Shown here: piece by piece, positions 19,809 through 33,778 of the stretch | Position numbering within the stretch: position 1 is the stretch's first letter | Layout of the letters: every line of letters starts with the position of its first letter | Assembly (NCBI GenBank): GCA_903861155.1 | Contig: CAIOTL010000063.1 | Span: 2,536-66,535 of the forward strand | DNA length: 64,000 nt | Source of the DNA: an uncultured Bacteroidota bacterium | GTDB lineage: Bacteria; Bacteroidota; Bacteroidia; Flavobacteriales; Flavobacteriaceae | Reading direction: 5' to 3' | Position numbers and translations under genes: made by a program | The notes under the pieces: generated by a model | Seen by the model: the letters and a program-made list of their open reading frames with translations, nothing else | The model's database searches: none | Told to the model about the DNA's origin: nothing

Positions 19809-20148
19809 ATAGCAGGCTATCGGCAACATAAATAATTAGAAACTATGGTTCATTACTAGCTCAGCACAAACCATTAAACCTCAATCTTTTAGATTAATTT
19901 CTGCAAGGAAAGCAGTCATCTGTCCATCTCATTACAGAGCTTATCGTCAAATTTTCAGAAAGAGATTCAAGAATCTCGATTACTTTTATGAATAAGGGCA
20001 AAAGCAAACTGAACCCACAAGATAAATGGCACCAAAAAAACTTCATCACATAAAATGACTATAAATAAAGGATTTTCTTTGAATTTTGCTGCACCTTTAC
20101 TATCTTTCGCATTCGAAAAAAAAAATTGAACCCTTACACATTGAAAAA

Positions 20149-22305
20149 ATGTTAGAAGAAAAGACTGACAACCTGCTTGAGGCAGATGGAAATTTAGCAA
20201 TCAATTCGATTGAAACGATTCAACACGATACAGAAATATTGGAAGAAACTGCTCCGGCCGAACCAAGCAACACCAAAACCGTAGCAGAAATTGCCGAAAC
20301 TGCCACAACGATTTCTGATGGAGAACTGACGGATACTGGCTCAATTATTGAACTCGAAAATCAAACTACTTTGGATTCTGAAACCCACGTTTTGGAAAAA
20401 ATTGAAACAGTTGAATCAACCCATAGCGCAATAGCAGATGAAACTGTACAAACTCCTCCCGACGGCGAACTGTCGGATACCAATACCATTATTGACGCCA
20501 TTGCTGATACTAATGCAGAGGAAAGCGAAGACGAAACGCTAAAAGAACGTCACGATATTCCGATGCTGGATTACGACACTTTGTCTTTAGAATCACTTGT
20601 TGAGGAACTGAAAAAATTGGTTACCAACGAAAAAGTGATGTCGGTAAGGGATCACGTCGAAGAAATTAAAAAATCATTTTTGGCCAAATATTACCATCTT
20701 TTAGAAGAGAAAAAAGAAGAATTTCTTGCCGAGTCCCTAAGCATAGGGACTGACGCGAATAAAGAATTCCAATATCATTCTCCTTTAAAAACAAAATTTG
20801 ACCAATATTATTCCTTATTCAGGGATAATAAAAATACGCATTTCAAAAGTTTGCAAACGAATTTAAAAACAAACCTAGAAAATAGATTGTCAATTGTAGA
20901 GGAATTAAAAGAGCTTATCAATCCGCAGGAAAACATCAAAGATACCTTAAAACAATTCAATGATTTAAGGGAACGATGGAAAAATGCAGGCCCAATTCCG
21001 AAAGACAAATACAACCACGTATGGAACAATTACCATTTTCACGTAGAAAATTTCTATGATTATTTGCACTTGGACAGGGAAGCAAGAGATCTTGATTTCA
21101 AACACAATTTAGAGCAAAAACAAAAAATTGTAGCGCGTGTTGAGGAATTGGTCAACGAAGTCGACATCAACAAAGCGTTCCGGGAATTACAGGATTTACA
21201 TAAAATCTGGAAAGAAGATATTGGTCCCGTTTCAAGAGAATTCCGTGATGAAATATGGAACAAGTTTAGTGATTTGACGAAACAAATGCACGACAAACGT
21301 GAAATTTTGTTCGGAAATTTAAGAGGAACCGAACTTGAAAATCTAAAAAAGAAAAAAGATATTATAGCCAAAATCGAAGTATTGGCAACCGAAAAAGTAA
21401 ACGCTCATTCGCAATGGCTGGGTCAAATAGAAAAAGTGGAAGCTTTAAGAACCGCTTTTTTCTCAGCTGGAAAAGTTCCGTCGGACGTGAATGAGGAAAC
21501 TTGGGCCGCTTTTAAAACTGCTGTCAGAAATTTTAATTCTTTTAAAAATTCATTTTATAAAGACATCAAAAAAGACCAAAACAATAATCTGAACAAAAAA
21601 ATGGCACTTGTAGCCAAAGCCAAAGAATTGCAGGAAAGTACTGATTTTGCTACTTCTACTCCAATTATGAAACAAATTCAGGAAGAATGGAAACAAATTG
21701 GACACGTTCCAAGAAAGTATTCTGATAAAATCTGGGCGGAATTCAAAGAAGCCTGCAATCATTATTTTGACAAATTAAAAGAACAGAAAAATGAAGAAAA
21801 CGGCGAAGAAATTGAAGCTTTCGACAAAAAGAAAGCCTATTTAGAAACCTTGAGAGCGTTTCAATTGGTTGGCGACCACAAAACCGATTTGGATGCTATA
21901 AAATTACATATCGAAACTTGGAAAAACTTCGGAAGAGTTCCTTTCGCAAGAAGGCACATTGAAGGAAAGTTCAATAAAGTTTTGGATGCTTTGTTTGAAA
22001 AGTTAAGTCTGAGCAAAAAAGACAGTGAAATGATGCGCTTCGCCAATAGAATTGATCATTTATCGGACAATAATGATACTCGAAAACTAGAAAACGAAAA
22101 GATTTTCTTGATGCGCAAAATTGATGAAATTAAGAATGAAATTTTCCAATTGGAAAACAACATCCAATTTTTTACCAATACAAGAAATGCGAAAAAAGAG
22201 AATTCAATTGTCTTGGAAGTCCGAAAAAACATTGAAAAGCACAGAGAAGAAATGAATATTTTGAAAGATAAATTAAAACAAGTCAGGAACATAAATCAGG
22301 CTTAA
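20149..22305 (+). CDS. DUF349-type helical repeat protein with acidic N-terminus
   Basis: Repeated L..K..l...a.eL....d....l..lq.eWk.iG.vP...d.iW..F units; start set at ATG 20149. Confidence 0.8.
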   Translation: MLEEKTDNLLEADGNLAINSIETIQHDTEILEETAPAEPSNTKTVAEIAETATTISDGELTDTGSIIELENQTTLDSETHVLEKIETVESTHSAIADETVQTPPDGELSDTNTIIDAIADTNAEESEDETLKERHDIPMLDYDTLSLESLVEELKKLVTNEKVMSVRDHVEEIKKSFLAKYYHLLEEKKEEFLAESLSIGTDANKEFQYHSPLKTKFDQYYSLFRDNKNTHFKSLQTNLKTNLENRLSIVEELKELINPQENIKDTLKQFNDLRERWKNAGPIPKDKYNHVWNNYHFHVENFYDYLHLDREARDLDFKHNLEQKQKIVARVEELVNEVDINKAFRELQDLHKIWKEDIGPVSREFRDEIWNKFSDLTKQMHDKREILFGNLRGTELENLKKKKDIIAKIEVLATEKVNAHSQWLGQIEKVEALRTAFFSAGKVPSDVNEETWAAFKTAVRNFNSFKNSFYKDIKKDQNNNLNKKMALVAKAKELQESTDFATSTPIMKQIQEEWKQIGHVPRKYSDKIWAEFKEACNHYFDKLKEQKNEENGEEIEAFDKKKAYLETLRAFQLVGDHKTDLDAIKLHIETWKNFGRVPFARRHIEGKFNKVLDALFEKLSLSKKDSEMMRFANRIDHLSDNNDTRKLENEKIFLMRKIDEIKNEIFQLENNIQFFTNTRNAKKENSIVLEVRKNIEKHREEMNILKDKLKQVRNINQA

Positions 22306-22326: not shown

Positions 22327-22362
22327 AAAACCTCATTCTTAACCCAAGATTGAGGTTTTTTA
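22327..22362 (+). terminator. Intrinsic terminator after the DUF349 gene
   Basis: AAAACCTCATTCTT-AACCC-AAGATTGAGGTTTT plus T run. Confidence 0.75.
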
Positions 22363-22379: not shown

Positions 22380-22393
22380 ATGATAATTATCAT
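22380..22393. promoter_or_regulatory. FNR-like palindrome upstream of hemN
   Basis: ATGAT-AATT-ATCAT, centred 29.5 bp before a TATTTTTG -7 box (22416-22423). Confidence 0.8.
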
Positions 22394-22444
22394 TTTAATA
22401 TTGGCAAGGGCTTACTATTTTTGATTACTGAAAAATGGCTTTTT

Positions 22445-23809
22445 ATGAAAAATTCTATCCTCCAAAAATATAATGTTCCCGGTCCAAGATACACGAGTTA
22501 TCCAACAGTTCCCTATTGGAACGAGGCTGATTTCACCTATCAAATGTGGATTGAAACCCTAAAAAAATCATTTGCAGAAAGTAATACCACCGAAGGATTA
22601 AGTCTTTACATTCATCTTCCTTTTTGTGAAAGTATGTGTACTTTTTGCGGCTGTAACAAGCGAATTACCAGAAATCACGAAGTAGAAAACCCCTATATTG
22701 AAGCAGTTTTGAAAGAATGGGCGATTTATTGCAACATTCTTGAAGACAAACCCATTATAAAAGAAATCCATTTGGGAGGAGGAACCCCCACTTTTTTCTC
22801 TACAAAAAATTTGGAAGATTTGATTAACGGGATTTTCTGTTATGCCGAAAGAGCCAAAGAGTACGAATTCAGTTTCGAAGGTCATCCCAACAATACAACG
22901 CGAGCCCATTTACAAAAGCTATATGAATTAGGTTTCCGAAGAGTTAGTTTTGGCGTTCAGGATTACTCCGAAAAAGTTCAAAAAGCGATCCATAGGGAAC
23001 AACCTTTTCACAACGTGGCAAAAGTAACTTTTTGGGCAAAGGAAATTGGTTACACCTCCATTGGTCACGATATAATTTTTGGCCTACCTTTTCAGGAAAT
23101 TGATGATGTAATTAATACCATTGAAAAAACTAATTCTTTACAACCTGATCGATTGGCGTTCTATAGTTATGCGCACGTACCATGGATAAAGGGAAATGGA
23201 CAACGCGGTTTCAATGATGAAGATATTCCAAAAGACGAAGTAAAACGTATGTTGTATGAAGTAGGGAAAGACTTATTATTTGAAAATGAGTATTATGAAA
23301 TCGGAATGGACCATTTTGCATTGAAAACTGACAGTTTATACAAATCTTTTGAGAATAAAACGTTACATCGCAATTTTATGGGTTACAGTTCATCAAAAAC
23401 CCAGTTGATGATTGGCTTGGGCGTTTCATCGATAAGCGATAGTTGGTATAGTTTTGCACAAAATGTAAAGGAATTAGAAGAATATTATAAACTATTGAAA
23501 GAAGATAAATTGCCCATTTTCAGGGGACATTTATTGACCGAAGAAGACCTTATTATCCGTAAACACATCCTGAATTTAATGTGCCAATTTGAAACTTCTT
23601 GGAAAGACAAATCGAATTATTTCAAGGAAATTCCAGATATTTTAATCCAATTGAAAGAAATGGAAAAAGATGGATTGGTAATTATTAAAAAAGATAGAAT
23701 CGAAGTTACCAATGCCGGAAAACCCTTTGTCCGCAATATTTGTATGGCATTTGACCTAAGATTAAAAAGAAAAGCGCCAGAAACCAAATTATTTTCGATG
23801 ACGATTTAA
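22445..23809 (+). CDS. hemN: Oxygen-independent coproporphyrinogen III oxidase (radical SAM)
   Basis: GPRYTSYPT, CxxxCxxC (CESMCTFC), GGGTPT, HRNFMGY; start ATG 22445 lies downstream of the promoter box. Confidence 0.95.
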   Translation: MKNSILQKYNVPGPRYTSYPTVPYWNEADFTYQMWIETLKKSFAESNTTEGLSLYIHLPFCESMCTFCGCNKRITRNHEVENPYIEAVLKEWAIYCNILEDKPIIKEIHLGGGTPTFFSTKNLEDLINGIFCYAERAKEYEFSFEGHPNNTTRAHLQKLYELGFRRVSFGVQDYSEKVQKAIHREQPFHNVAKVTFWAKEIGYTSIGHDIIFGLPFQEIDDVINTIEKTNSLQPDRLAFYSYAHVPWIKGNGQRGFNDEDIPKDEVKRMLYEVGKDLLFENEYYEIGMDHFALKTDSLYKSFENKTLHRNFMGYSSSKTQLMIGLGVSSISDSWYSFAQNVKELEEYYKLLKEDKLPIFRGHLLTEEDLIIRKHILNLMCQFETSWKDKSNYFKEIPDILIQLKEMEKDGLVIIKKDRIEVTNAGKPFVRNICMAFDLRLKRKAPETKLFSMTI

Positions 23810-24511
23810 TCAATGACAATTAGGAGTCGTTTGTATGAACAAACTCGTATTTGAAGGAGAAACATAGGGAATTCCCAATCCTAAACCTCTCAAAATAAAT
23901 AATACTCCAATAATTACCCCTATGTAAGGAATGGCTTTTTGGATTTTATTTCGAATCGAAATGGTCAAAAAAGAATTGAGATATACCACGGCACTCATCA
24001 TTGGGACAGTTCCCAACCCAAACAAAATCATATACAAAACGCCAAGACTTTCGCTTTGCATTGCAATGGCCCCAAACAAGGCAACATAAACCATTCCGCA
24101 AGGTAAAAATCCGTTGAGCAAACCGATGGTGAATAGTGATTTATAACTCTTGTTTTTAAATTGGCTTCCTAAAGTTGATTTGATCTTGGAAATTAGTTTA
24201 AAAACTGATTTTGAGAAGTTGTAATTGGCAAAAATTCTCTCAGGAACCAAAATCACGGTAATCATCGCAACACCAATAAATAGTGATAGTTTTTGTTGTA
24301 TTCCGGCAAGAAAAAATCCTTTACCAACCAATCCGAAGACCAATCCAATTGACGCATATGCAGATAATCTGCCTAGATGATACGTGATGATTTGTGTCGT
24401 TTTCTTTGCGGGATTTGTTCTGTCCACCGGCAACATCAAAGCAATAGGTCCGCACATTCCGATGCAGTGAAAACTACTGATTAATCCGAAGATGAAAGCT
24501 GTGTAAAGCAT
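23810..24511 (-). CDS. TauE/SafE (DsbD_2-like) membrane protein, cbb3 accessory
   Basis: HCIGMCGPI, YHLGR, GFLPCGMVY, FGLGTVPM. Confidence 0.88.
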   Translation of the reverse strand: MLYTAFIFGLISSFHCIGMCGPIALMLPVDRTNPAKKTTQIITYHLGRLSAYASIGLVFGLVGKGFFLAGIQQKLSLFIGVAMITVILVPERIFANYNFSKSVFKLISKIKSTLGSQFKNKSYKSLFTIGLLNGFLPCGMVYVALFGAIAMQSESLGVLYMILFGLGTVPMMSAVVYLNSFLTISIRNKIQKAIPYIGVIIGVLFILRGLGLGIPYVSPSNTSLFIQTTPNCH

Positions 24512-24573
24512 TTTAGATTGCAGATTTTAGATTGCAGATTTTAGATTTTAGATTTTAGATTTTAGATTTTAAG
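24511..24573. repeat. Heptamer tandem array (TTTTAGA/TTGCAGA) x8 plus a partial unit
   Basis: Direct reading; on the coding strand (TCTAAAA)n runs into the ATG. Confidence 0.95.
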
Positions 24574-24594
24574 CAAATCAATTATCTACCCTCT

Positions 24595-25044
24595 TTAATT
24601 TATATAAACAGTTTCCTTTGTAAGATATTGTTTTCCATTATATTGCCACTCCATATTAATTTCCCATCGACCGTCTAACAACCTGTTTTTAGGAACGAGC
24701 AAAGAGGAACCAGAAAGTGCAATTGGCACGTCAAAATCTAGTTTTTCGCTTGATGATCTGTAAAAAGATACTTTCCCTTTGATGTTTTTTGGAACATAAA
24801 CTTCTGGAAATATAATCGTAATTCCTTCTGCAGTATCTGTTATTACAGGTTTTTGAGCTAGATCCTGAGCACTTTGAATCCTCACCATTTCATCTCCAAA
24901 TTTCGCATCGTGTTTGTAATATTCGTCAACAACCAATTCATTGTCGTATTTTGAATCCGATTGGACTTTAATAACAAAATATAAAATAAAAGTCATAAAC
25001 AATGCAAAAGCAATTACGATTCCTGTTCCCCAATTAATTTTCAT
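24595..25044 (-). CDS. ccoH: FixH/CcoH family protein
   Basis: MKINWGTGIVIAF..F, ELV.DEYYK; position in the cco operon; start set at ATG 25044. Confidence 0.85.
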   Translation of the reverse strand: MKINWGTGIVIAFALFMTFILYFVIKVQSDSKYDNELVVDEYYKHDAKFGDEMVRIQSAQDLAQKPVITDTAEGITIIFPEVYVPKNIKGKVSFYRSSSEKLDFDVPIALSGSSLLVPKNRLLDGRWEINMEWQYNGKQYLTKETVYIN

Positions 25045-25078
25045 AACAATGTATTTTTTAATAATAAAACTTAGAAAT

Positions 25079-26497
25079 CTAATCAAAACTTTGTGGGCTC
25101 AAAAAACTTGTAGTTGTAGTTTCAATTTTTTTATTCCCATTATAGACCTCAACTTCTATTTTTGTTTTATCGTGTTCTAATAAATATTGATGGATTTCAA
25201 TGAACAAAGTTCCTTGAGCCATTGTTTGTTTTTTTACTTTAAAATCTTGTTTTCCAACAACATTTATTTTTCCTTTTATTCCGTGTAATTTGAAATGTAT
25301 GTCATTAAAATCATTATTCGTTTTATTGATAATTTTGAATGTGAAAATATTGCTAATATCATCGCCTTTGTGCTCATACAATTGTCCAGGTAATCTAAAA
25401 ATAGTTGCCTCAACTTCTGTACGGATAAACAATAATCCGATTAATATTCCAACAAGAATCAACAATACGGAGCTATATCCTTTCATCCTGGCCGTGAATT
25501 TGAATCCAATATTCTTCTCGATTTCATCTTCTGACGCATAACGAATAAGTCCTTTTGGTAAACCTACACCTTCCATAATAGTGTCGCATTCGTCTACGCA
25601 TGCGGTGCAATTAATGCATTCTAATTGCGTTCCGTTTCGAATATCAATTCCTGTTGGACAAACGTTGACACATTGTTTACAATCAATGCAATCACCTTTT
25701 CCGGACGTAGCTCTATCTTCTTGTTTATTGAACTTGGCTCTGCCATATTCCTTTTCGCCTCGAACAAAATCATAGGCAACATTTATTGATTTATCGTCCA
25801 ATAAAACTCCTTGTAATCTTCCATAAGGACAAGCAATAATGCAAACCTGTTCTCTGAACCAAGCAAAAATAAAATAGAAAATACCAGTGAATATAGATAG
25901 TGAAATCAAGGTGCTACCTTGATTTTCGGGTCCTTCCTCAATCATTCGGATCAATTCGTCGCTTCCTATAAGATAAGCAAGGAAAATATTGGCGATAAAA
26001 AATGAAATCACTAAAAAAACAAACCATTTTAAGCCTTTCTTCCTGATTTTTTCGGTATTCCATTCTTGCTTGGATAATCTAATTTGGGCGCCACGATCGC
26101 CTTCTATCCAAAATTCTATTCTTCGAAAAACCATTTCGAGAAATATGGTTTGGGGACAAATCCATCCGCAAAATATGCGTCCGAAAATCACGGTAAAAAG
26201 AATGACAAAAACCACTCCAACAATCATAAAAAGAACAAAAAGGTAGAAATCTTGTGGCCAAAATGGAAATCCAAAAATATTAAATCGACGTTCTAAAACG
26301 TTGAACATCATAAACTGGTTACCATTAATCTTTATGAACGGATTTGCAACCAAAATTATCAATAAAAAATAGCTTACCCACTTCCTGTAGTCATAAAACC
26401 TGCCGGAAGGTTTTTTTGGAAAAATGAATTTCCTATTCCCCGCTTCATCAATTGTACCTATGGTATCTCTAAAAGCTTCGTCTGGAATTTTTGGCAT
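25079..26497 (-). CDS. ccoG: cbb3 oxidase accessory protein CcoG/FixG
   Basis: CGWICPQT, CIIACPYGRLQ, two ferredoxin motifs CIDCKQCVNVCPTGIDIR and CINCTACVDEC. Confidence 0.95.
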   Translation of the reverse strand: MPKIPDEAFRDTIGTIDEAGNRKFIFPKKPSGRFYDYRKWVSYFLLIILVANPFIKINGNQFMMFNVLERRFNIFGFPFWPQDFYLFVLFMIVGVVFVILFTVIFGRIFCGWICPQTIFLEMVFRRIEFWIEGDRGAQIRLSKQEWNTEKIRKKGLKWFVFLVISFFIANIFLAYLIGSDELIRMIEEGPENQGSTLISLSIFTGIFYFIFAWFREQVCIIACPYGRLQGVLLDDKSINVAYDFVRGEKEYGRAKFNKQEDRATSGKGDCIDCKQCVNVCPTGIDIRNGTQLECINCTACVDECDTIMEGVGLPKGLIRYASEDEIEKNIGFKFTARMKGYSSVLLILVGILIGLLFIRTEVEATIFRLPGQLYEHKGDDISNIFTFKIINKTNNDFNDIHFKLHGIKGKINVVGKQDFKVKKQTMAQGTLFIEIHQYLLEHDKTKIEVEVYNGNKKIETTTTSFLSPQSFD

Positions 26498-26521
26498 TTT
26501 TTATTGTTTGTTTGATCATAA

Positions 26522-26555
26522 AATCTTTGCCAAGTTTGTAGACTTGGCAAAGATT
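26522..26555. terminator. 14-bp hairpin between ccoP and ccoG (attenuator, terminator or stabiliser)
   Basis: AATCTTTGCCAAGT-TTGTAG-ACTTGGCAAAGATT. Confidence 0.65.
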
Positions 26556-26593
26556 ATAAAAGTAAATTTATTGTATAATAAATTAAAAAATCA

Positions 26594-27898
26594 TTATTTC
26601 TTAACTGAACCTACCCAAACATCACCTTCAGGTGCTTTCGGGTTCGGTGGATTAGTTCCTTGCAATGACAAAACATAACTTGCAACCAGTTGAATGTCTT
26701 TTGGCTTCATTCCGCTTTTAGACCAAGCAACCATTCCTTTCCCTTCACGCCCCCCGTTTGTAATTGTGTTGACAACATTCTTAATCCCTCCACCCAAAAT
26801 CCAACGATTATCCGTCAAATTTGGACCTATCAGTCCACCAGCATCTGGTCTGTGACAGGCAACACAAGTTGTCATAAAAATTTTCTTACCCGCAGCTAAA
26901 TCTGCTGGACTAGTCAACAATACAACATTGTTTTCAGAAACAGTAACATCTGTTTTTGTAGCAGTCTCGGTAGTCTCTGTTTTGGTCTCAACCACTGCAT
27001 CAACTTTTTTAGGAGATCCTGAATCAGTCCAAACTTCTCCTTCTGGAGCTTTCGGATTCACGGGATTACTTCCTTGCAACGACAATACATAACTCGCAAC
27101 AAGTTGAATATCTTTAGGCTTCATACCACTTTTTGACCAAGCAATCATACCTTTTCCGTCACGACCACCATTGGTAATGGTGTGGAAAACATTTTTAATA
27201 CCACCTCCCAAAATCCATCTATCATCCGTTAAATTAGGGCCGATTAGTCCTCCTGCATCGGGTCTGTGACAGGCAACACAATTAGTCATGAAAATTTTCT
27301 TTCCCGTAGCTAAATCAGCAGGACTGGTCAATAAAGTAACGGTTTTTTCATCCATTAAATCAGGAGCGGTTTTTTTATAATTGGCAATATCAATTTGGGC
27401 TTGAGCCATTTCTTTTTTCAATTCCATTTCTTGATTATCTCCGCCCATGACTTCAAATCGAACAAGGTAAACCACTGCAAAAATGATGCAACCATAGAAC
27501 AAGTAAACCCACCATGGTGGCAAACTGTTGTCTAATTCCTTAATTCCGTCATAATCGTGATCCAACAATAATTGTCCTTCGTTTTCTATTGGTTCTGATT
27601 TTGTCAAAGCTTTTATCAGTTTTTTGAACCATGCGCTTTCCTTATAGCTAACAGCACTAGTTTCCTCTAATTTTGCTTTTTGTTCTTCAGTAAGCAATTG
27701 ATACGTGATGGTATCTACTGCATTTACAGTGATTTCAATTGCTATTAAAAGGAAAAGAAATACAAATAAAAAGAGGGAAACCATTGGGAATTTTACGAAA
27801 GCTGGTTGATTTCCAGAGTCAATAAAATATTCCATTGTTCCAAAAACAGCGAAGAAAATGATTATTATTCTTAAATATGCTGGGATTAATTTTTTCAT
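26594..27898 (-). CDS. ccoP: cbb3-type cytochrome c oxidase subunit III with two tandem cytochrome c domains
   Basis: HDYDGIKELDNSLPPWW (FixP N-terminus) and two CVACH heme motifs. Confidence 0.93.
   Translation of the reverse strand: MKKLIPAYLRIIIIFFAVFGTMEYFIDSGNQPAFVKFPMVSLFLFVFLFLLIAIEITVNAVDTITYQLLTEEQKAKLEETSAVSYKESAWFKKLIKALTKSEPIENEGQLLLDHDYDGIKELDNSLPPWWVYLFYGCIIFAVVYLVRFEVMGGDNQEMELKKEMAQAQIDIANYKKTAPDLMDEKTVTLLTSPADLATGKKIFMTNCVACHRPDAGGLIGPNLTDDRWILGGGIKNVFHTITNGGRDGKGMIAWSKSGMKPKDIQLVASYVLSLQGSNPVNPKAPEGEVWTDSGSPKKVDAVVETKTETTETATKTDVTVSENNVVLLTSPADLAAGKKIFMTTCVACHRPDAGGLIGPNLTDNRWILGGGIKNVVNTITNGGREGKGMVAWSKSGMKPKDIQLVASYVLSLQGTNPPNPKAPEGDVWVGSVKK
26615..27340 (-). repeat. Internal domain duplication in ccoP (27029-27340 and 26615-26926)
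   Basis: Two 104-aa copies with 11 differences by manual alignment. Confidence 0.95.
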
Positions 27899-27926
27899 TT
27901 TTTTATTTATTTGAAAATTATATAAT

Positions 27927-28097
27927 TCAATTATCGTTCAAAGGAAGTTGGCTCATTTCGTCAATTTTTTCTTTTTTATACGAAAAAACCCAAACACCAA
28001 GTCCTACAAAAAAAACAAAGAAAATCAATAAAGCCGTTATTGGATAAGTCTCGATTCCTTCGATTGTTTCCAAATTGTGTTTGATTTGTTCGAACAT
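27927..28097 (-). CDS. ccoQ: cbb3-type oxidase subunit CcoQ (56 aa, not in ORF track)
   Basis: MFEQIKHNLETIEGIETYPITALLIFFVFFVGLGVWVFSYKKEKIDEMSQLPLNDN; single TM, located between ccoNO and ccoP. Confidence 0.85.
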   Translation of the reverse strand: MFEQIKHNLETIEGIETYPITALLIFFVFFVGLGVWVFSYKKEKIDEMSQLPLNDN

Positions 28098-28102
28098 AAT
28101 TA

Positions 28103-30292
28103 CTATTTATTAGAGTTATCTTTTACTTTAATATCGGTTCCCAATCGCTGGATATAAGCAATTAGCGCCACGATTTCTCTTTCGTTCATCGGAACAAATT
28201 TCTCGCCTCTAGCTTCTGCTTTTTTCTTGCTGTCACTATAACTTTTCACGAAGTCGGGATCATTTTTAAGGCTTTCCTCGATTTTCATTGCTTGCGCCCT
28301 CAAATCTTTTGGCCCATTTGCAATCTGTTCATTCGTATAAGGAACCCCAAGGGTTTGCATCGCTTTCATTTTCTTTTCTGTCAATGAAATATCCATTGGT
28401 TCATTGGCAAATAACCATTTATAAGACGGCATCAAAGAACCTGCCGAAATACTTTGCGGACTCCAGAAGTGGTTAAAATGCCAATTGTTATTGTATTTCC
28501 CCCCTTCCCTCTCTAAATCTGGACCAGTTCGTTTAGAACCCCAAAGGAAAGGGTGGTCATAAACAAACTCTCCAGCTTTGGCTTGTGGTCCATAACGTTC
28601 TACTTCGCTTCGAAAAGGACGAACAGATTGAGAGTGACAACCCACGCAACCTTCGCGAATATATAAATCGCGACCTTGTAATTCAAGTGGGGAATATGGT
28701 TTTACACTGGCAATTGTAGGGATATTTGATTTTATCATAATCGTTGGAACAATTTGAACGATTCCACCAATCAAGATGGCAATCACGGCAAAAATTGTCA
28801 ATTGAATTGGTTTTCTTTCTAACCAGGCGTGGTATTTTTCACCTTTGATTCTTCCCGCGCTAATTTTTACCAATGCTGGTGCTTCGGCTAATTCGTCTTC
28901 GATTGTAGAACCTGTCCTTACGGTTTGGATAATGTTATAAACCAATGTCAACATTCCTGTAAGGTAAAGCACGCCACCAAAAGCTCTCATCCAATACATT
29001 GGCATAATTTGAGTCACGGTTTCGAGGAAATTTCCATATGTCAAGGTTCCATCAGGATTGAATTGTTTCCACATAGAAGCCTGAGTAAATCCGGCAACAT
29101 ACATTGGAATCGTATAAAATATAATTCCCAAAGTTCCAATCCAGAAGTGAAAATTGGCTAATTTAATGGAATACAAAGTGCTTTTGGTCATCCTTGGTAT
29201 TAACCAATAAATAATACCAAATGACATAAATCCATTCCAGGCCAAAGCACCAACGTGAACATGGGCAATAATCCAATCCGTATAATGTGCGATGGCATTT
29301 ACGCTTTTAAGGGATAGCATTGGACCTTCGAAAGTTGCCATTCCGTAACCAGTAATTGCAACGACGAAGAATTTTAATACCGGATCAACACGCACTTTAT
29401 CCCAAACACCTCTTAAGGTCAATAATCCGTTTATCATTCCTCCCCAAGACGGTGCAATCAACATTATCGAAAATGCAACTCCTAAATTCTGCGCCCAGTT
29501 TGGTAATGCTGAATACAATAAATGGTGAGGTCCAGCCCAAATATATAAGAATATTAACGACCAAAAGTGAACAATTGACAATCGATACGAATAAACGGGA
29601 CGATTGGCAGCTTTTGGAACAAAATAATACATCAATCCCAAGAATGGCGTGGTCAAGAAAAAGGCAACCGCATTATGGCCATACCACCACTGCACCAAAG
29701 CATCCTGAACTCCTGCGTAAACTGAATAACTTTTCATAGCCGAAACTGGCAACTCCAAGCTGTTGAAAATATGTAAAACTGCCACGGTCACGAAAGTGGC
29801 AATGTAAAACCAAATCGCAACATATAAATGGCGTTCTCGTCTTTTGAGAATTGTACCAATCATATTGATCCCCATAACAACCCAAATTAATGCAATGGCA
29901 ATATCAATAGGCCATTCTAATTCAGCATATTCTTTTGAAGTGGTGTAACCTAAGGGCAACGAAACGGCTGCCGCAACAATAATTAACTGCCAACCCCAAA
30001 AATGAAGGTTACTTAAAAAATCATTATACATTCTTGCTTTAAGAAGACGCTGCAACGAATAATACATTCCTGCAAAAAAAGCATTTCCCACAAAGGCAAA
30101 AATTACTGCATTGGTATGTAAAGGTCTCAATCTACCATAGCTTAACCACGAAATTCCGTCGGTCATATTTGGGAAAAGAAACATCAAGGCCAAAACAAGC
30201 CCTACTAACATTCCCACAACACCGAAAACGATGGTTGCGAAAATGAATTTCTTTACAATTTTGTTGTCATAATAAAATTGTTGCATTTCCAT
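28103..30292 (-). CDS. ccoN: Fused cbb3-type cytochrome c oxidase subunits I/II (CcoNO)
   Basis: RLRPLHTN, QWWYGHN, WAGPHHL, HVHVG; C-terminal CcoO domain with EGCVGCH and WGSKRTGPDL. Confidence 0.97.
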   Translation of the reverse strand: MEMQQFYYDNKIVKKFIFATIVFGVVGMLVGLVLALMFLFPNMTDGISWLSYGRLRPLHTNAVIFAFVGNAFFAGMYYSLQRLLKARMYNDFLSNLHFWGWQLIIVAAAVSLPLGYTTSKEYAELEWPIDIAIALIWVVMGINMIGTILKRRERHLYVAIWFYIATFVTVAVLHIFNSLELPVSAMKSYSVYAGVQDALVQWWYGHNAVAFFLTTPFLGLMYYFVPKAANRPVYSYRLSIVHFWSLIFLYIWAGPHHLLYSALPNWAQNLGVAFSIMLIAPSWGGMINGLLTLRGVWDKVRVDPVLKFFVVAITGYGMATFEGPMLSLKSVNAIAHYTDWIIAHVHVGALAWNGFMSFGIIYWLIPRMTKSTLYSIKLANFHFWIGTLGIIFYTIPMYVAGFTQASMWKQFNPDGTLTYGNFLETVTQIMPMYWMRAFGGVLYLTGMLTLVYNIIQTVRTGSTIEDELAEAPALVKISAGRIKGEKYHAWLERKPIQLTIFAVIAILIGGIVQIVPTIMIKSNIPTIASVKPYSPLELQGRDLYIREGCVGCHSQSVRPFRSEVERYGPQAKAGEFVYDHPFLWGSKRTGPDLEREGGKYNNNWHFNHFWSPQSISAGSLMPSYKWLFANEPMDISLTEKKMKAMQTLGVPYTNEQIANGPKDLRAQAMKIEESLKNDPDFVKSYSDSKKKAEARGEKFVPMNEREIVALIAYIQRLGTDIKVKDNSNK

Positions 30293-30294
30293 AA

Positions 30295-30489
30295 TTAAAT
30301 TTGTTTTTCTTTGGTTATTTGTTTGGTTTTTGATTTTTCTTTTATGACGAGTTCATCGTCAAAAAGCATCCTGACGGAAGGAGTGTAATCATCGTCATAT
30401 TGACCTGTTTTTACCGCTCTGATAAAAGCAATAAAAAAAACAATAGCGACTAGAATACTTATGGATATTAGTAAATATATAACACTCAT
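30295..30489 (-). CDS. ccoS: cbb3 oxidase assembly protein CcoS
   Basis: TM segment followed by AVKTGQYDD. Confidence 0.92.
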   Translation of the reverse strand: MSVIYLLISISILVAIVFFIAFIRAVKTGQYDDDYTPSVRMLFDDELVIKEKSKTKQITKEKQI

Positions 30490-30536
30490 ACTTTATAGTT
30501 TAAGTTTACAAAAATACTTTAGTAGTTTTTTTTAAA

Positions 30537-30554
30537 ATATGACAATTGTCATAT
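30537..30554. promoter_or_regulatory. FNR-like palindrome upstream of the ccoS-NO-Q-P operon
   Basis: Perfect 18-bp ATATGAC-AATT-GTCATAT, centred 29.5 bp from a minus-strand TATTTTTG box (30509-30516). Confidence 0.8.
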
Positions 30555-30590
30555 TTATTTATTTTCGTTAAAAATAAGAAAATTTATTGT

Positions 30591-32987
30591 CTATTTAACA
30601 ATTATAATCTTATTTAATCTTCGGGCATAAAAATTACTCATTACTGTTACAAAACTGACAATCGTGACCGTGCTCAAAGGCATAATGATTGCCGCAATTA
30701 ATGGCAAAAGGTTTCCCGTAATGGCAAATGATAGCCCCACAACATTATACAACAACGACAACATAAAACTCATTTTAATAGTCGCTATGGCTTTTTGGGA
30801 CAGTTTTAAGAAGTAATCCAACCTTTTAAATTCGCTTGCGTCAAGAATGGCGTCGCAAGCCGGCGAAAAAACATTCACGTTTTCCGAAATTGAAATCCCA
30901 ATGTTGCTTTGCGCCAAAGCCCCGGCATCGTTCAATCCATCGCCTACCATCATTACGTTTTTGCCTTCCAATTGCAATTTTTTGATGAATTCCAGTTTTT
31001 CTTCTGGTTTTTGATTGAAAATCAATTCGGTTCCCTTAGGCAAAATACTTTCCAAAGTTTCGCGTTCGCCTTCATTATCACCAGACAAAACTTTGATTTG
31101 ATAATTGGCATTTAATTTCTCTAAAAGTTCTCCTAATCCGTCTCTGTATTGATTATTGAAAATGTATTTTCCGAAATAAACCTCGTTAATTTTGATATGA
31201 ACTGAAGTTTGTTGAATGTTCTTCTCTTCTGATTTTCCAATGAAATCTGCCGAACCAACATGAACCAAGATTCCATCAATATCTGCTTGAATTCCTTTTC
31301 CAGTAATTTCTTGAAAATCGTCTAATTTAAATCGCTTACCTTCCGGCAAAAAATCATACAACATTCTGCTTAACGGATGATTCGAAGCACGAAGAACATT
31401 TCTTATAATTACCAAATTATCCTCCGGAATCATTATTCCTTCATAAGAAATATTCGATTTTTTATTTGTAGTAATCGTTCCTGTTTTATCGAAAACTATA
31501 GTATCCACTTTGGCCAATTGTTCTATGACCAAGGCATTTTTGAGATAGAATTTTTTCTTTCCCAAAATTCTCAAAATATTTCCAAAAGTAAATGGCGCCG
31601 TCAATGCCAATGCACACGGGCAAGCCACGATTAACACTGCCGTAAAAACATTGAAGGCGATATTGACGTCTATAAAAATCCAATAGCCAAATGCTCCAAA
31701 AGCAATCAGTAAAAGTATCGGCGTAAAATAACGGCTAATTTTGTCGGTAATGGTTTTATGTTTTTGCTCGACATTTTTCTGAAAAACGTCGTTGCTCCAT
31801 AATTGCGTCAAATAACTTTGGGAAACCGAGTACAAAACTTCCATTTCGATGACTTTCCCAATTTGTTTTCCGCCGGCAAAGACCTTGTCTCCTGATTTTT
31901 TGGTAATCGGAATGGCTTCACCGGTAACAAAACTATAGTCAATTTCGGCTTTTTCGGAAATTAAAATACCATCAACAGGAATCAATTCCTGGTTTCTGAT
32001 TAGTAATCTATCCCCTTTTTGAATGTCATAAATCGGCACACTTTCTTCAGAAGCATCACTGTTAATTCTGGTGATTGCAATTGGAAAATAAGACTTAAAA
32101 TCTCTTTCGAAACTCAAGAAACTATAGGTTTTTATTTGGAACATTTTACCCAAAAGCATAAAAAAAATCAAGCCAGTAAGGCTGTCAAAAAACCCGGATC
32201 CGTAGTCCATAAAAATATCGAAAGTACTTCGAACGAAGAAAATAATGATTCCCAATGCAATGGGAATATCGATATTCAACATTCCAGATTTGATGCTTTT
32301 ATAAGCAGAAAAGTAGTAATCGCTAGCCGAAAAGAAAAAACTTGGCAAAGCCAAAATAAAAATCAGCCAACGGAAAAATCCGCGATATTGGTCCAGCCAA
32401 AATTCCTTGACTTCGAAATATTCGGGAAATGAAAGCAACATAATATTACCGAAACAAAAGAATGCAACGCCCAGTTTGTAGGTCAAGCTCCTGTCGACAT
32501 TATTCTTGCCTGTTTCATAATTTTCTAAACTGATGTAAGGTTCATAACCAATGGAACTTAATAAATGAACAATAGTTTTGAGCGAAACAGTTTCCGGATT
32601 AAAGGTAATTCGGACTTTCTTTTCGGGAAAATTCACTTGTGAACTGCTTATTCCTTTCTGTAATTTTTGAAGATTTTCGAGAATCCAAATACACGAACTA
32701 CAGTGTATGTGCGGAATATTTAAGGAAACAATTGTCGTTGCATCACCTTGAAATTCCAAAAGTTTCGAAACGATACTTTCATTATCCAAGAAGTCATATT
32801 TGCCACTAATATCAAGCGGAGTTATCCCAGGAGATTTTTCGAAATCATAATAACAAGTCAAATCATTAAGACTAAAAATTTCGTACACGGTTTTGCAACC
32901 ATTGCAACAAAATTGCTTTTCGTCAAAAATTATTTGCTCCTCTTTTATAATGTCCAAGCCACAATGGAAACAGTTTTGGGCATCCAT
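30591..32987 (-). CDS. ccoI: Heavy-metal (Cu) translocating P1B ATPase CcoI/FixI
   Basis: CFHC..CCNGC, HCSSC, TGEA, CPC, DKTGT, MVGDGLNDA. Confidence 0.93.
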   Translation of the reverse strand: MDAQNCFHCGLDIIKEEQIIFDEKQFCCNGCKTVYEIFSLNDLTCYYDFEKSPGITPLDISGKYDFLDNESIVSKLLEFQGDATTIVSLNIPHIHCSSCIWILENLQKLQKGISSSQVNFPEKKVRITFNPETVSLKTIVHLLSSIGYEPYISLENYETGKNNVDRSLTYKLGVAFFCFGNIMLLSFPEYFEVKEFWLDQYRGFFRWLIFILALPSFFFSASDYYFSAYKSIKSGMLNIDIPIALGIIIFFVRSTFDIFMDYGSGFFDSLTGLIFFMLLGKMFQIKTYSFLSFERDFKSYFPIAITRINSDASEESVPIYDIQKGDRLLIRNQELIPVDGILISEKAEIDYSFVTGEAIPITKKSGDKVFAGGKQIGKVIEMEVLYSVSQSYLTQLWSNDVFQKNVEQKHKTITDKISRYFTPILLLIAFGAFGYWIFIDVNIAFNVFTAVLIVACPCALALTAPFTFGNILRILGKKKFYLKNALVIEQLAKVDTIVFDKTGTITTNKKSNISYEGIMIPEDNLVIIRNVLRASNHPLSRMLYDFLPEGKRFKLDDFQEITGKGIQADIDGILVHVGSADFIGKSEEKNIQQTSVHIKINEVYFGKYIFNNQYRDGLGELLEKLNANYQIKVLSGDNEGERETLESILPKGTELIFNQKPEEKLEFIKKLQLEGKNVMMVGDGLNDAGALAQSNIGISISENVNVFSPACDAILDASEFKRLDYFLKLSQKAIATIKMSFMLSLLYNVVGLSFAITGNLLPLIAAIIMPLSTVTIVSFVTVMSNFYARRLNKIIIVK

Positions 32988-33036
32988 AAGTTCTCTCCTT
33001 TTATGGTGACAAATTTACTAACTGAACAAATTAAAA

Positions 33037-33054
33037 ATATGATAATTATCATAT
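33037..33054. promoter_or_regulatory. FNR-like palindrome between divergent ccoI and the Crp/Fnr gene
   Basis: Perfect ATATGAT-AATT-ATCATAT; -7 boxes on both sides (minus 33010-33017; plus 33054-33061 and 33062-33069). Confidence 0.8.
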
Positions 33055-33097
33055 AAATTTGTAGATTTGCATAAACTCAATCAATATTTTCTTTTTT

Positions 33098-33778
33098 ATG
33101 GGCAAATGTGAACAATGTATCGTGAGAGAATTCAGTTCTCTGAAAGCACTTAATAAGGAAGAACTAACCAGAATTGCCGAATGCAAAACTTCATATTCCA
33201 TCAAAAAAGGCGAACATATTTTTGAAGAAGGAGAAAGCATTAACGGGATATATTGCGTGAAAGGTGGAGTCTGCAAACTCTCCAAATTAAGCGCAAACGG
33301 AAAAGACCAAATTGTAAAGTTAGTTAAATCAGGAGAATTACTCGGCCAACGTTCTATGATTAGTGGTGAACCCGCCAATTTAAGCGCTGTGGCGCTTGAA
33401 GATATGGAAGTTTGTTTTATTCCCCGAAGTGAAGTGGTGGATTTGTTTGACAAAAACAACCAGTTTTCGATGAACCTAATGAAAACTATTTGTGGTGATT
33501 TAAAAGAAGTGAGTGACCACGTTGTTTCAATGTCCCAAAAAACAGTAAAAGAAAGATTAGCAGAAACACTTGTTTACCTCCATGAAACTTTCGGAAAAAA
33601 CGAGGATGGTTCGTTACGCATTCAGCTTTCTAGAGAAGAATTGGCAGGAATGATCGGAACAGCTACCGAAAGCTGCATCCGTTTATTATCCGATTTTAAT
33701 AAATTAGGTTTTATAGAATTAGCTGGTAAAAAAATTGTTGTTAAAGATATTGGCAAACTTAAACGAATTGCCGATTAA
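33098..33778 (+). CDS. Crp/Fnr family transcriptional regulator (FNR-like)
   Basis: N-terminal CEQC plus further Cys, cNMP-binding fold, C-terminal HTH SREELAGMIGTATESCIR. Confidence 0.92.
   Translation: MGKCEQCIVREFSSLKALNKEELTRIAECKTSYSIKKGEHIFEEGESINGIYCVKGGVCKLSKLSANGKDQIVKLVKSGELLGQRSMISGEPANLSAVALEDMEVCFIPRSEVVDLFDKNNQFSMNLMKTICGDLKEVSDHVVSMSQKTVKERLAETLVYLHETFGKNEDGSLRIQLSREELAGMIGTATESCIRLLSDFNKLGFIELAGKKIVVKDIGKLKRIAD

Follow-up and report, generated by a model that had tools for sequence, protein, structure and literature searches.

A variant FNR-type operator and its adjoining Crp/Fnr-family protein as a probable low-oxygen switch of Flavobacteria

Introduction

By which regulator, and through which operator, do Flavobacteria turn on the genes for their cbb3 oxidase and for hemN when oxygen runs short? 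The question is raised by a locus in a 64,000-nucleotide (nt) stretch of DNA from an uncultured Bacteroidota bacterium (contig CAIOTL010000063.1); this whole stretch is called the window below, and all coordinates are window positions. The locus holds hemN, a cco operon that begins with ccoS, the copper-type ATPase gene ccoI and, divergent from ccoI, the gene for a 226-residue Crp/Fnr-family protein whose closest relatives are annotated as Flavobacterium. A preliminary description, made from the letters alone, had noticed in it three palindromes of the form ATGAY-N4-RTCAT and had read them as the operators of an FNR-like regulon. We propose, with a probability of roughly 0.7, that the 226-residue protein would bind ATGAY-N4-RTCAT as a dimer, activate hemN, the ccoS operon and ccoI at low oxygen from class II positions, limit its own synthesis and sense oxygen through an iron-sulfur cluster. 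The arrangement is most likely a low-oxygen switch of Flavobacteria that has so far gone undescribed.

Much of the breakdown of algal and particulate organic matter, where oxygen gradients are steep, falls to the Flavobacteriia, and the important fish pathogens among them meet hypoxic tissue. With an operator and its promoter geometry defined and a candidate sensor at hand, oxygen sensing in this group becomes a question open to the genetics of F. johnsoniae or F. psychrophilum, and prediction of the regulon becomes possible in thousands of genomes and metagenomes.

Results

Palindromes at fixed distances from their promoters

Three copies of the palindrome, all of them intergenic, lie upstream of hemN (site 1), upstream of the ccoS operon (site 2) and between ccoI and the regulator gene (site 3). 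The centre of the palindrome stands 29.5 base pairs (bp) from the first T of a TAnnTTTG box at hemN, 29.5 bp at ccoS and 28.5 bp at ccoI; on the other side of site 3, the first T of each of the tandem boxes of the regulator gene is 8.5 and 16.5 bp from the centre. A fresh reading of the sequence returned the palindrome positions, the three spacings and the pair of plus-strand -7 boxes after the third site just as the preliminary description had them, and the observation of three spaced palindromes is confirmed. The centre of site 3 is predicted at -40.5 for ccoI and, from the conserved one of the two boxes, at about -28.5 for the regulator gene.

The form with the shared AATT centre, ATGAYAATTRTCAT, is found three times in the 64 kb against 0.00 expected, a number that none of 100 shuffles reaches, and the loose pattern ATGAYNNNNRTCAT (ATGAY-N4-RTCAT) is found three times against 0.64 expected, a number reached by 2 of 100 shuffles. 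With a weight matrix built from the 107 orthologous sites described below, the window matches at 8 bits or more are these three alone, and nothing at 10 bits or more appears in 30 Markov shuffles. The canonical box TTGAY-N4-RTCAA was not found anywhere in the window by a pattern scan. A sigma-70 and terminator scan of the window (50 found, 43 expected) was uninformative, as expected for Bacteroidota promoters.

Orthologous promoters

A metagenome scan with the regulator yielded 80 Flavobacterium loci (L001-L080) with regulator orthologues of 76-92% identity. In these loci TGAY-N4-RTCA was seen in every upstream region of ccoI (75/75) and of ccoS (48/48), and in 75 of the 77 upstream regions of the regulator gene. 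Sites before internal genes of the operon were considered and are ruled out by the counts in the orthologous loci, which are 0/49 for ccoNO, 0/42 for ccoP and 0/41 for ccoG; their absence fits a single promoter before ccoS.

We compared 107 distinct orthologous windows, 64 from ccoI and 43 from ccoS. The columns A-T-G-A and T-C-A-T do not vary in any of the 107, while the flanking sequence drifts; position 5 is always a pyrimidine (C or T), position 10 always a purine (A or G), and the centre is A/T-rich (AAAT or AATT, rarely AAAA, ATTT or TTTT), with most sites reading ATGACAAATGTCAT. The centre also has a polarity: in the direction of the activated gene, 64 of the 107 have AAAT, 32 have AATT and just 2 have ATTT, at ccoI and ccoS alike, which suggests a constraint from the promoter side (bending or contact) beyond the symmetry of a dimer.

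The distance to the promoter is kept as closely as the core. All 43 ccoS windows have the centre 29.5 bp from the box and an invariant TA..TTTG, and the 64 ccoI windows have 29.5 bp (46), 28.5 bp (17) or 30.5 bp (1), so that a spacing of 29.5 or 28.5 bp is seen in 106/107. An A-T-T-T-T follows directly 3' of the palindrome and falls at -34 to -30, where the -33 element belongs. For the regulator gene, 46/64 windows have the first T of the conserved box at 16.5 bp from the centre, 11 have it at 15.5 bp and 4 at 17.5 bp.

The arrangement extends to more distant loci. Among 28 loci fetched through their ccoS site, 27 have the site between ccoI and the regulator gene, down to 58% ccoI identity and in other genera. 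A hemN with its own site is found for 18 of 22 hemN genes of genome loci and also in one metagenome locus (L020). In the four loci in which hemN lacks a site (L123, L125, L146 and L106, from Polaribacter and some marine Flavobacteriaceae), the gene is placed between ccoI and ccoS in the same orientation, beginning in L106 just 6 bp after ccoI, and in these Polaribacter-type loci it appears to be controlled through the promoters of the cluster. A Cyclobacteriaceae-like locus (L224-L226) has a relative of the regulator away from cco genes and without the site, and is silent on other orders.

Two variations on the arrangement were also seen. Two loci (L008 and L009) have a pair of tandem TGATAAATATCA sites upstream of ccoS, 18 bp apart (-78 and -60 from the ATG). 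In one subclade (L025, L027, L029, L030, L038, L041, L042, L048 and L071) a palindrome, GTGACyTTTGTCAC, makes up the -7 region of ccoI, about 33 nt before the ATG of that gene and 34 bp downstream of the ATGA..TCAT site; its half-sites, GTGA..TCAC, are CRP-like. This second palindrome, which is absent from the window, could be an operator for another Crp-family protein.

Transcription starts in Flavobacterium psychrophilum

For F. psychrophilum, a map of transcription start sites (TSS) and expression data are available from Guerin et al. 2021 (PMC9723704), who placed the sigma-A box TAnnTTTG at -12 to -5, the placement that the preliminary description had assumed. Their Table S2 gives 61 nt around each start, and in the portion of it that we searched for the site sequences two promoters carry one. 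THC0290_T_0050, which precedes the cytochrome c551/c552-family gene THC0290_0041, has ATGATATTTATCAT at -48 to -35 (centre -41.5) and TACTTTTG at -12 to -5, and THC0290_T_0388, before a gene for a PAS-domain sensor, carries ATGATAATTATCAT with its centre at -39.5. Taken together, the mapped starts and the distance to the -7 box put the site near -41.5, as in a class II promoter; this position had been proposed for the window, where it is a prediction from the -7 box, and has now been found in a congener, exactly at one mapped promoter and within 2 bp at the other.

The same study found that oxygen limitation strongly induces the cbb3 operon of F. psychrophilum, which is co-expressed with hemN and a monohaem c-type cytochrome in cluster C52 (PMC9723704). 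Both site-bearing genes are listed in C52; in the portion of Table S3 searched, the C52 matches are these two genes and the adjoining transcribed regions, four features in all. According to the portion of Table S5 searched, the two site-bearing genes, THC0290_0041 and THC0290_0456, drop by about 2.7 log2 in stationary phase (PMC9723704). No regulator or motif is named for the C52 response, and the words 'Fnr' and 'Crp' are absent from the main text and from the portions of the supplements searched.

The regulator and its cysteines

The two Pfam domains of the protein (PF00027, E 8e-21; PF13545, E 4e-16) place it in the CRP/FNR superfamily, and its best NCBIfam model is FNR (NF008365), with 97.2 bits, below the family cut-off of 228. 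Residues 4-224 align end to end with FNR of A. fischeri (holo-FNR). In this alignment, Cys4, Cys7 and Cys106 fall on the FNR ligands Cys20, Cys23 and Cys122, and Ser13 falls on the position of Cys29. The recognition helix reads T-A-T-E-S-C-I-R (E191-x-x-x-R195), with Ile for the Ser in the E-x-x-S-R of FNR proper. The N-terminal CxxC and the E-x-x-x-R helix attributed to the protein in the preliminary description are therefore both present, as C4/C7 and E191/R195. Its further label of FNR-like regulator holds for the fold, three ligand cysteines and the E and R of the helix; with neither a cysteine at the Cys29 position nor the Ser of E--SR, the protein is not a canonical FNR. Four criteria place it outside FNR proper: the score cut-off of the NCBIfam model, a ligand at Cys29, a helix of the E--SR type and a TTGAT box.

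Orthologues from named genomes (43-79% identity) have invariant Cys at positions 4, 7, 53 and 106, and it is the other cysteines of the window protein (Cys29, 59, 132 and 193) that vary. A search of 1.8 billion representatives gave 235 clusters (50% identity) at E < 1e-30, from which we analysed the 137 full-length best ones. Cysteines 4, 7, 53 and 106 are all kept in 92 of these 137, a cysteine at the FNR Cys29 position is found in 3, and T-E-[S/T]-x-I-R dominates as the helix. An alignment of 60 sequences, down to 33% identity, has C4, C7, C106, E191 and R195 invariant and C53 and I194 conserved to at least 90%. The named relatives belong to Joostella, Cyclobacteriaceae, Saprospiraceae and unclassified Bacteroidota.

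The AlphaFold (AF2) model has a predicted local distance difference test score (pLDDT) of 93.7 and matches Crp/Fnr structures, holo-FNR included, over the full length with template modelling (TM) scores of 0.85-0.90. Cys53 is on the strand 50-56 of the model and Cys106 on the strand 103-109. By standard topology these would be strands 3 and 8 of the jelly roll, which are neighbours, and this makes Cys53 a plausible fourth ligand of a cluster.

The operator and the recognition helix differ from those of FNR at matching places. In FNR, Ser212 helps to read the first T of TTGAT. Across the CRP/FNR family, contacts to the conserved core are made by Glu and Arg at the positions of CRP 181 and 185, and the identity of residue 180 goes with the base that precedes T-G-A, Arg being paired with G (CRP-type) and other residues with T (FNR-type) (PMC1274295). 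Glu191 and Arg195 are kept in our protein, which fits the keeping of the T-G-A core. The base before T-G-A is always A, residue 180 is Thr and FNR Ser212 has become Ile, and these two residues fit an A in place of the T (FNR) or G (CRP). Judged from the alignments, the changes in cis and in trans are in the places expected to co-vary.

The same promoter in other genomes

We scanned reference genomes, one per species, for ATGAYAAWTRTCAT followed after 21-23 nt by TAnnTTTG and obtained at least 120 loci. Among the matches listed, about 100 are from Flavobacteriales of many genera, 6 from unspecified Bacteroidota, 9 from other Bacteroidota orders and 2 from Ignavibacteria, and 2 are probable chance matches (Clostridium and a methanogen). 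The suggestion that the box is specific to the Bacteroidota is thus solid as far as the Flavobacteriales go; for the other orders it meets only a handful of matches, obtained with a biased pattern.

The first downstream gene, among the same matches, is ccoS in at least 32, hemN in at least 17 and ccoI in at least 3. A lipoprotein cytochrome c of about 168 residues follows in at least 7 and another small cytochrome c in at least 2, a tandem universal stress protein (Usp) in at least 6 and a fasciclin protein in at least 4. In ones and twos there are hemA (glutamyl-tRNA reductase), pyruvate formate-lyase (pfl), phosphate acetyltransferase (pta), copper nitrite reductase (nirK) fused to cytochrome c (with nirK a target in two genomes), a 2-oxoacid:acceptor oxidoreductase, the small subunit of a NiFe hydrogenase, the B12-dependent ribonucleotide reductase NrdJ, bacteriohemerythrin, an anaerobic sulfatase maturase and CcsB. 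These downstream genes are the content of an oxygen-limitation regulon that is spread beyond one locus. The regulon had been called self-contained, a word that has to be given up: the same promoter architecture stands elsewhere in the genomes of relatives, before cytochromes c, Usp, the PAS sensor, hemA, nirK, pfl, pta, hydrogenase and NrdJ.

The site followed after 21-23 nt by TAnnTTTG also stands directly before phage-type open reading frames (ORFs) in 23 viral contigs of IMG/VR (L081-L103), the ORFs being an exonuclease, a ParB-like protein, a tail tube protein and many of unknown function. The homologous viral pairs L085/L099, L089/L093 and L083/L101 retain the site, and the single pair that was aligned is conserved throughout. 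The count of 23 is about the chance level in AT-rich DNA, and we draw no claim from it.

Organisation of the locus

The features of the locus are collected in Table 1. With sites before the ccoS operon, ccoI and hemN, it has the content of a regulon of the FNR/ANR/FixK type, the induction by oxygen limitation coming from F. psychrophilum only. The window holds no other Crp/Fnr homologue and no Fur homologue. The 56-residue ORF that separates ccoNO from ccoP probably encodes a small subunit of the CcoQ type. CcoP is long (434 residues) and has two near-identical cytochrome c domains, each opened by 'LLTSPADLA.GKKIFMT.CVACHRPDAGGLIGPNLTD', a pair suggestive of a recent duplication within the gene. 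At 22333-22362, 3' of a DUF349 gene (20086-22305) and just before site 1, there is a hairpin with a T-run behind it (AACCTCA...TGAGGTTTTTT), likely a terminator that insulates the hemN promoter. In a search of sequencing runs, a Tenacibaculum locus gave partial contig matches only.

Table 1. Operators, predicted -7 boxes and genes of the hemN-cco locus, in window positions
Feature	Position	Strand	Remarks
Site 1, ATGATAATTATCAT	22380-22393		upstream of hemN; centre 29.5 bp before the -7 box, predicted at -41.5
hemN -7 box, TATTTTTG	22416-22423	+	sigma-A type TAnnTTTG; predicted TSS at about 22428, leader of about 17 nt
hemN, oxygen-independent coproporphyrinogen III oxidase	22445-23809	+	TIGR00538, 413 bits against a cut-off of 325
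cco operon	23810-30489	-	ccoS through DsbD_2; NCBIfam and Pfam
DsbD_2 membrane protein	24511-23810	-	NCBIfam/Pfam
ccoH/FixH	25086-24595	-	NCBIfam/Pfam
ccoG	26497-25079	-	NCBIfam/Pfam
ccoP	27898-26594	-	NCBIfam/Pfam
56-residue ORF	28097-27927	-	one predicted membrane helix; between ccoNO and ccoP
ccoNO, fused	30292-28103	-	NCBIfam/Pfam
ccoS	30489-30295	-	NCBIfam/Pfam
ccoS operon -7 box, TATTTTTG	30516-30509	-	sequence reading
Site 2, ATGACAATTGTCAT	30539-30552		in an 18-bp palindrome, 30537-30554; upstream of the minus-strand ccoS operon; predicted centre -41.5
ccoI/fixI, copper-type P1B ATPase	32987-30591	-	N-terminal ATPase-cat_bd domain; NCBIfam/Pfam
ccoI -7 box, TAAATTTG	33017-33010	-	sequence reading
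Site 3, ATGATAATTATCAT	33039-33052		in an 18-bp palindrome, 33037-33054; common to the divergent ccoI and regulator genes
Regulator -7 box, first of tandem pair, TAAATTTG	33054-33061	+	directly after site 3
Regulator -7 box, second of tandem pair, TAGATTTG	33062-33069	+	the conserved one of the pair; regulator ATG at 33098
Crp/Fnr-family regulator, 226 residues	33098-33778	+	cNMP_binding and HTH_Crp_2; NCBIfam/Pfam

Discussion

We suggest that, when oxygen is scarce, the cluster of the regulator would stay in place and the protein would form a dimer and occupy the three sites. This dimer, centred at about -41.5 or -40.5 at hemN, ccoS and ccoI, would abut the T-rich -33 element (T-run at -33 to -30) and recruit or stimulate the sigma-A RNA polymerase in the class II manner. 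At the promoter of its own gene the dimer would lie over about -35 to -22, cover the -33 region and hinder the polymerase, which would place negative feedback on the regulator at the same site that activates ccoI. The signal would be the state of an oxygen-labile iron-sulfur cluster on Cys4, Cys7 and Cys106, with the family-specific Cys53 replacing FNR Cys29. The activation part of this mechanism is well supported: the site and its distance to the promoter are conserved, a start has been mapped in a congener, and target genes are induced together in hypoxia. From the conserved adjacency and the matching changes in helix and operator, we infer that the binder is the adjoining regulator; that oxygen is sensed through the cluster is inferred by homology, and that the regulator represses its own gene from the position of the site and one conserved -7 box. 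The core of the preliminary description, a variant FNR-type box at class II distance served by the adjoining Crp/Fnr-family protein, is supported by the comparisons.

Several observations weigh against this mechanism. The position of the fourth FNR ligand, Cys29, is not a cysteine in our protein and lacks one nearly throughout the family, so that cluster binding is not assured. The authors of the F. psychrophilum study count C52 among the clusters induced by the iron chelator dipyridyl (PMC9723704), and in the portion of Table S5 searched, THC0290_0041 and THC0290_0456 change with dipyridyl by log2 +0.56 and +0.87 (1.5- to 1.8-fold). Loss of an iron-sulfur holo-activator predicts a fall with the chelator, so the slight rise fits a simple holo-activator of this kind poorly and leaves room for a haem, iron or redox signal. 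Adjacency of the regulator gene is circumstantial, there being many Crp/Fnr paralogues in flavobacteria, and the case for autorepression is built on a single box. The genome scan pattern includes the Bacteroidota -7 box, which biases the spread over taxa. Finally, the run search matched the window sequence to DNA runs of lake-water metagenomes alone and to no RNA runs.

The rival explanation that survives best keeps both the regulator and its action on DNA and alters the signal, which would be haem or iron sufficiency, thiol redox or nitric oxide, hypoxia acting indirectly, for example by a shortage of haem when oxygen-dependent haem steps stall. The near-absence of a cysteine at the Cys29 position, the haem-centred core of the regulon (hemN, hemA, cbb3, cytochromes c and CcsB), the nirK target and the rise, rather than fall, of C52 genes with dipyridyl all speak for it. 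Against it, invariant cysteines stand at three of the four ligand positions of FNR, the conserved Cys53 is modelled on a strand that would lie next to that of Cys106, anaerobic targets that involve no haem are found elsewhere (pfl, pta, NrdJ, hydrogenase and the anaerobic sulfatase maturase), and the dipyridyl effect on the two genes, as given in the portion of the supplement searched, is small. We consider a signal other than oxygen unlikely, and retain direct sensing through an iron-sulfur cluster as the preferred model.

That the sites are true operators of a CRP/FNR-type dimer and are bound by a paralogue encoded elsewhere, the adjoining regulator having other targets, is quite improbable. 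The geometry TGA-N6-TCA is family-wide, flavobacterial genomes hold many Crp/Fnr proteins, and our view of this genome is limited to 64 kb; against this, the regulator gene adjoins the site in 75/77 Flavobacterium loci and in other genera, its invariant helix T-E-S-x-I-R co-occurs with the invariant ATGA half-site, and a sensor domain with conserved cysteines suits the hypoxic physiology of the targets. Binding by the adjoining regulator is thus the reading that we prefer.

Operators of the iron regulator Fur, with the genes derepressed at low iron, are a very improbable reading of the sites. ATGATAATTATCAT does resemble an AT-rich Fur box, sites 1 and 3 can be read as GATAAT-type hexamers and C52 is listed as dipyridyl-induced, but the symmetry is even, with TGA and TCA six bases apart, and is not that of a 7-1-7 or 19-bp (9-1-9) layout; an AT-rich repeat of odd symmetry over the core promoter of iron-repressed genes, by which a Fur box would be known, was looked for and is not what these sites are. 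Most orthologous sites are ATGACAAATGTCAT, which is un-Fur-like, and C or G is frequent at positions 5 and 10. Moreover, a centre at -41.5 beside an intact -33/-7 promoter is the position of an activator, the dipyridyl induction in the portion of data searched is just 1.5- to 1.8-fold for two genes, no Fur homologue is linked to the locus within the window, and the regulon elsewhere is one of anaerobic metabolism, not of iron uptake. Chance palindromes without function, which an AT-rich genome and the 2 in 100 shuffles with three loose matches might bring to mind, are excluded by the exact shared 14-mer class (0/100 shuffles), by the intergenic position and fixed promoter distance of every copy and, decisively, by a core that stays the same in over 100 diverged orthologous promoters.

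A broader proposal can be made only tentatively, and we would rate it as possible at somewhat less than even odds. A large branch of the CRP/FNR family within the Bacteroidota (at least 235 clusters; named members in Flavobacteriaceae, Cyclobacteriaceae and Saprospiraceae) may have its founding member in this regulator. The branch would sense oxygen by a differently ligated iron-sulfur cluster (C-x2-C...Cys53...Cys106) and use an operator dialect of its own, ATGAY-N4-RTCAT read by an E-x-x-I-R helix, on the unusual sigma-A promoter of the Bacteroidota. It would then be the master hypoxia switch of marine and freshwater Flavobacteriia, fish pathogens included, and might even be exploited by their phages.

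Relation to known systems

Among the Bacteroidota, the only CRP/FNR regulon with a published motif that our literature search found is that of HcpR2 of Bacteroides and Porphyromonas (PMC1274295). It shares with the present system the family, the phylum, a 14-bp palindrome and a regulator gene beside its target. It differs in its motif, GTAAC-N4-GTTAC, in having Pro at the Glu181 position and no FNR-type cysteines, and in controlling hcp only, in answer to nitrosative stress. The closest solved structure, by sequence (E 4e-27) as well as by fold (TM 0.90), is 2GAU, a Crp/Fnr-family protein of Porphyromonas gingivalis from structural genomics; its alignment starts from residue 17 and leaves the CxxC segment uncovered, and it has Ser for the Glu of the helix. 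Cluster C52 of F. psychrophilum has the same gene set (cbb3 operon, hemN and monohaem cytochrome c) and is induced by oxygen limitation, with two site-bearing promoters in the portion of the start table searched (PMC9723704). A wastewater study assigned CRP/FNR homologues of Flavobacteriales to MalR-like carbon sensing. Our search of the open full-text literature, which did not extend to subscription journals or RegPrecise, met with no account of an FNR-type regulator in flavobacteria and none of the ATGAY-N4-RTCAT motif.

The nearest functional relatives are FNR (E. coli and A. fischeri), ANR (Pseudomonas), FnrL (Rhodobacter) and FnrN/FixK (rhizobia). The present system shares with them the fold and the succession of domains (cNMP-type beta-roll, dimerisation helix and helix-turn-helix), the cysteines at the FNR Cys20, Cys23 and Cys122 positions, the E and R of the helix, the 14-bp palindrome with a TGA-N6-TCA core centred at about -41.5 and the presence of a site in the regulator's own promoter. 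The targets are also the same, since cbb3 (ccoNOQP/fixNOQP), ccoGHIS and hemN are the classical core regulon of ANR, FnrL and FixK. In contrast to FNR, our protein has no cysteine at the Cys29 position and has the conserved Cys53 at the position of FNR Ala70; its helix has E-x-x-I-R for E-x-x-S-R (Glu209, Ser212 and Arg213 of FNR) and Thr for Val208. The half-site is ATGAY and not TTGAT, the inner TGAY-N4-RTCA being common to both and the outer A and T being first and last in 107/107. The promoter is the Bacteroidota sigma-A type (-33 TTTG/-7 TAnnTTTG), and the site abuts its upstream element where that of FNR overlaps it. FNR-type control of cbb3 and hemN is already known and classical, and the advance made here is an extension of it, not a new principle; it opens two comparisons with the known systems, that of a class II activator working on the -33/-7 sigma-A promoter of the Bacteroidota and that of an FNR-type cluster that may have a different fourth ligand.

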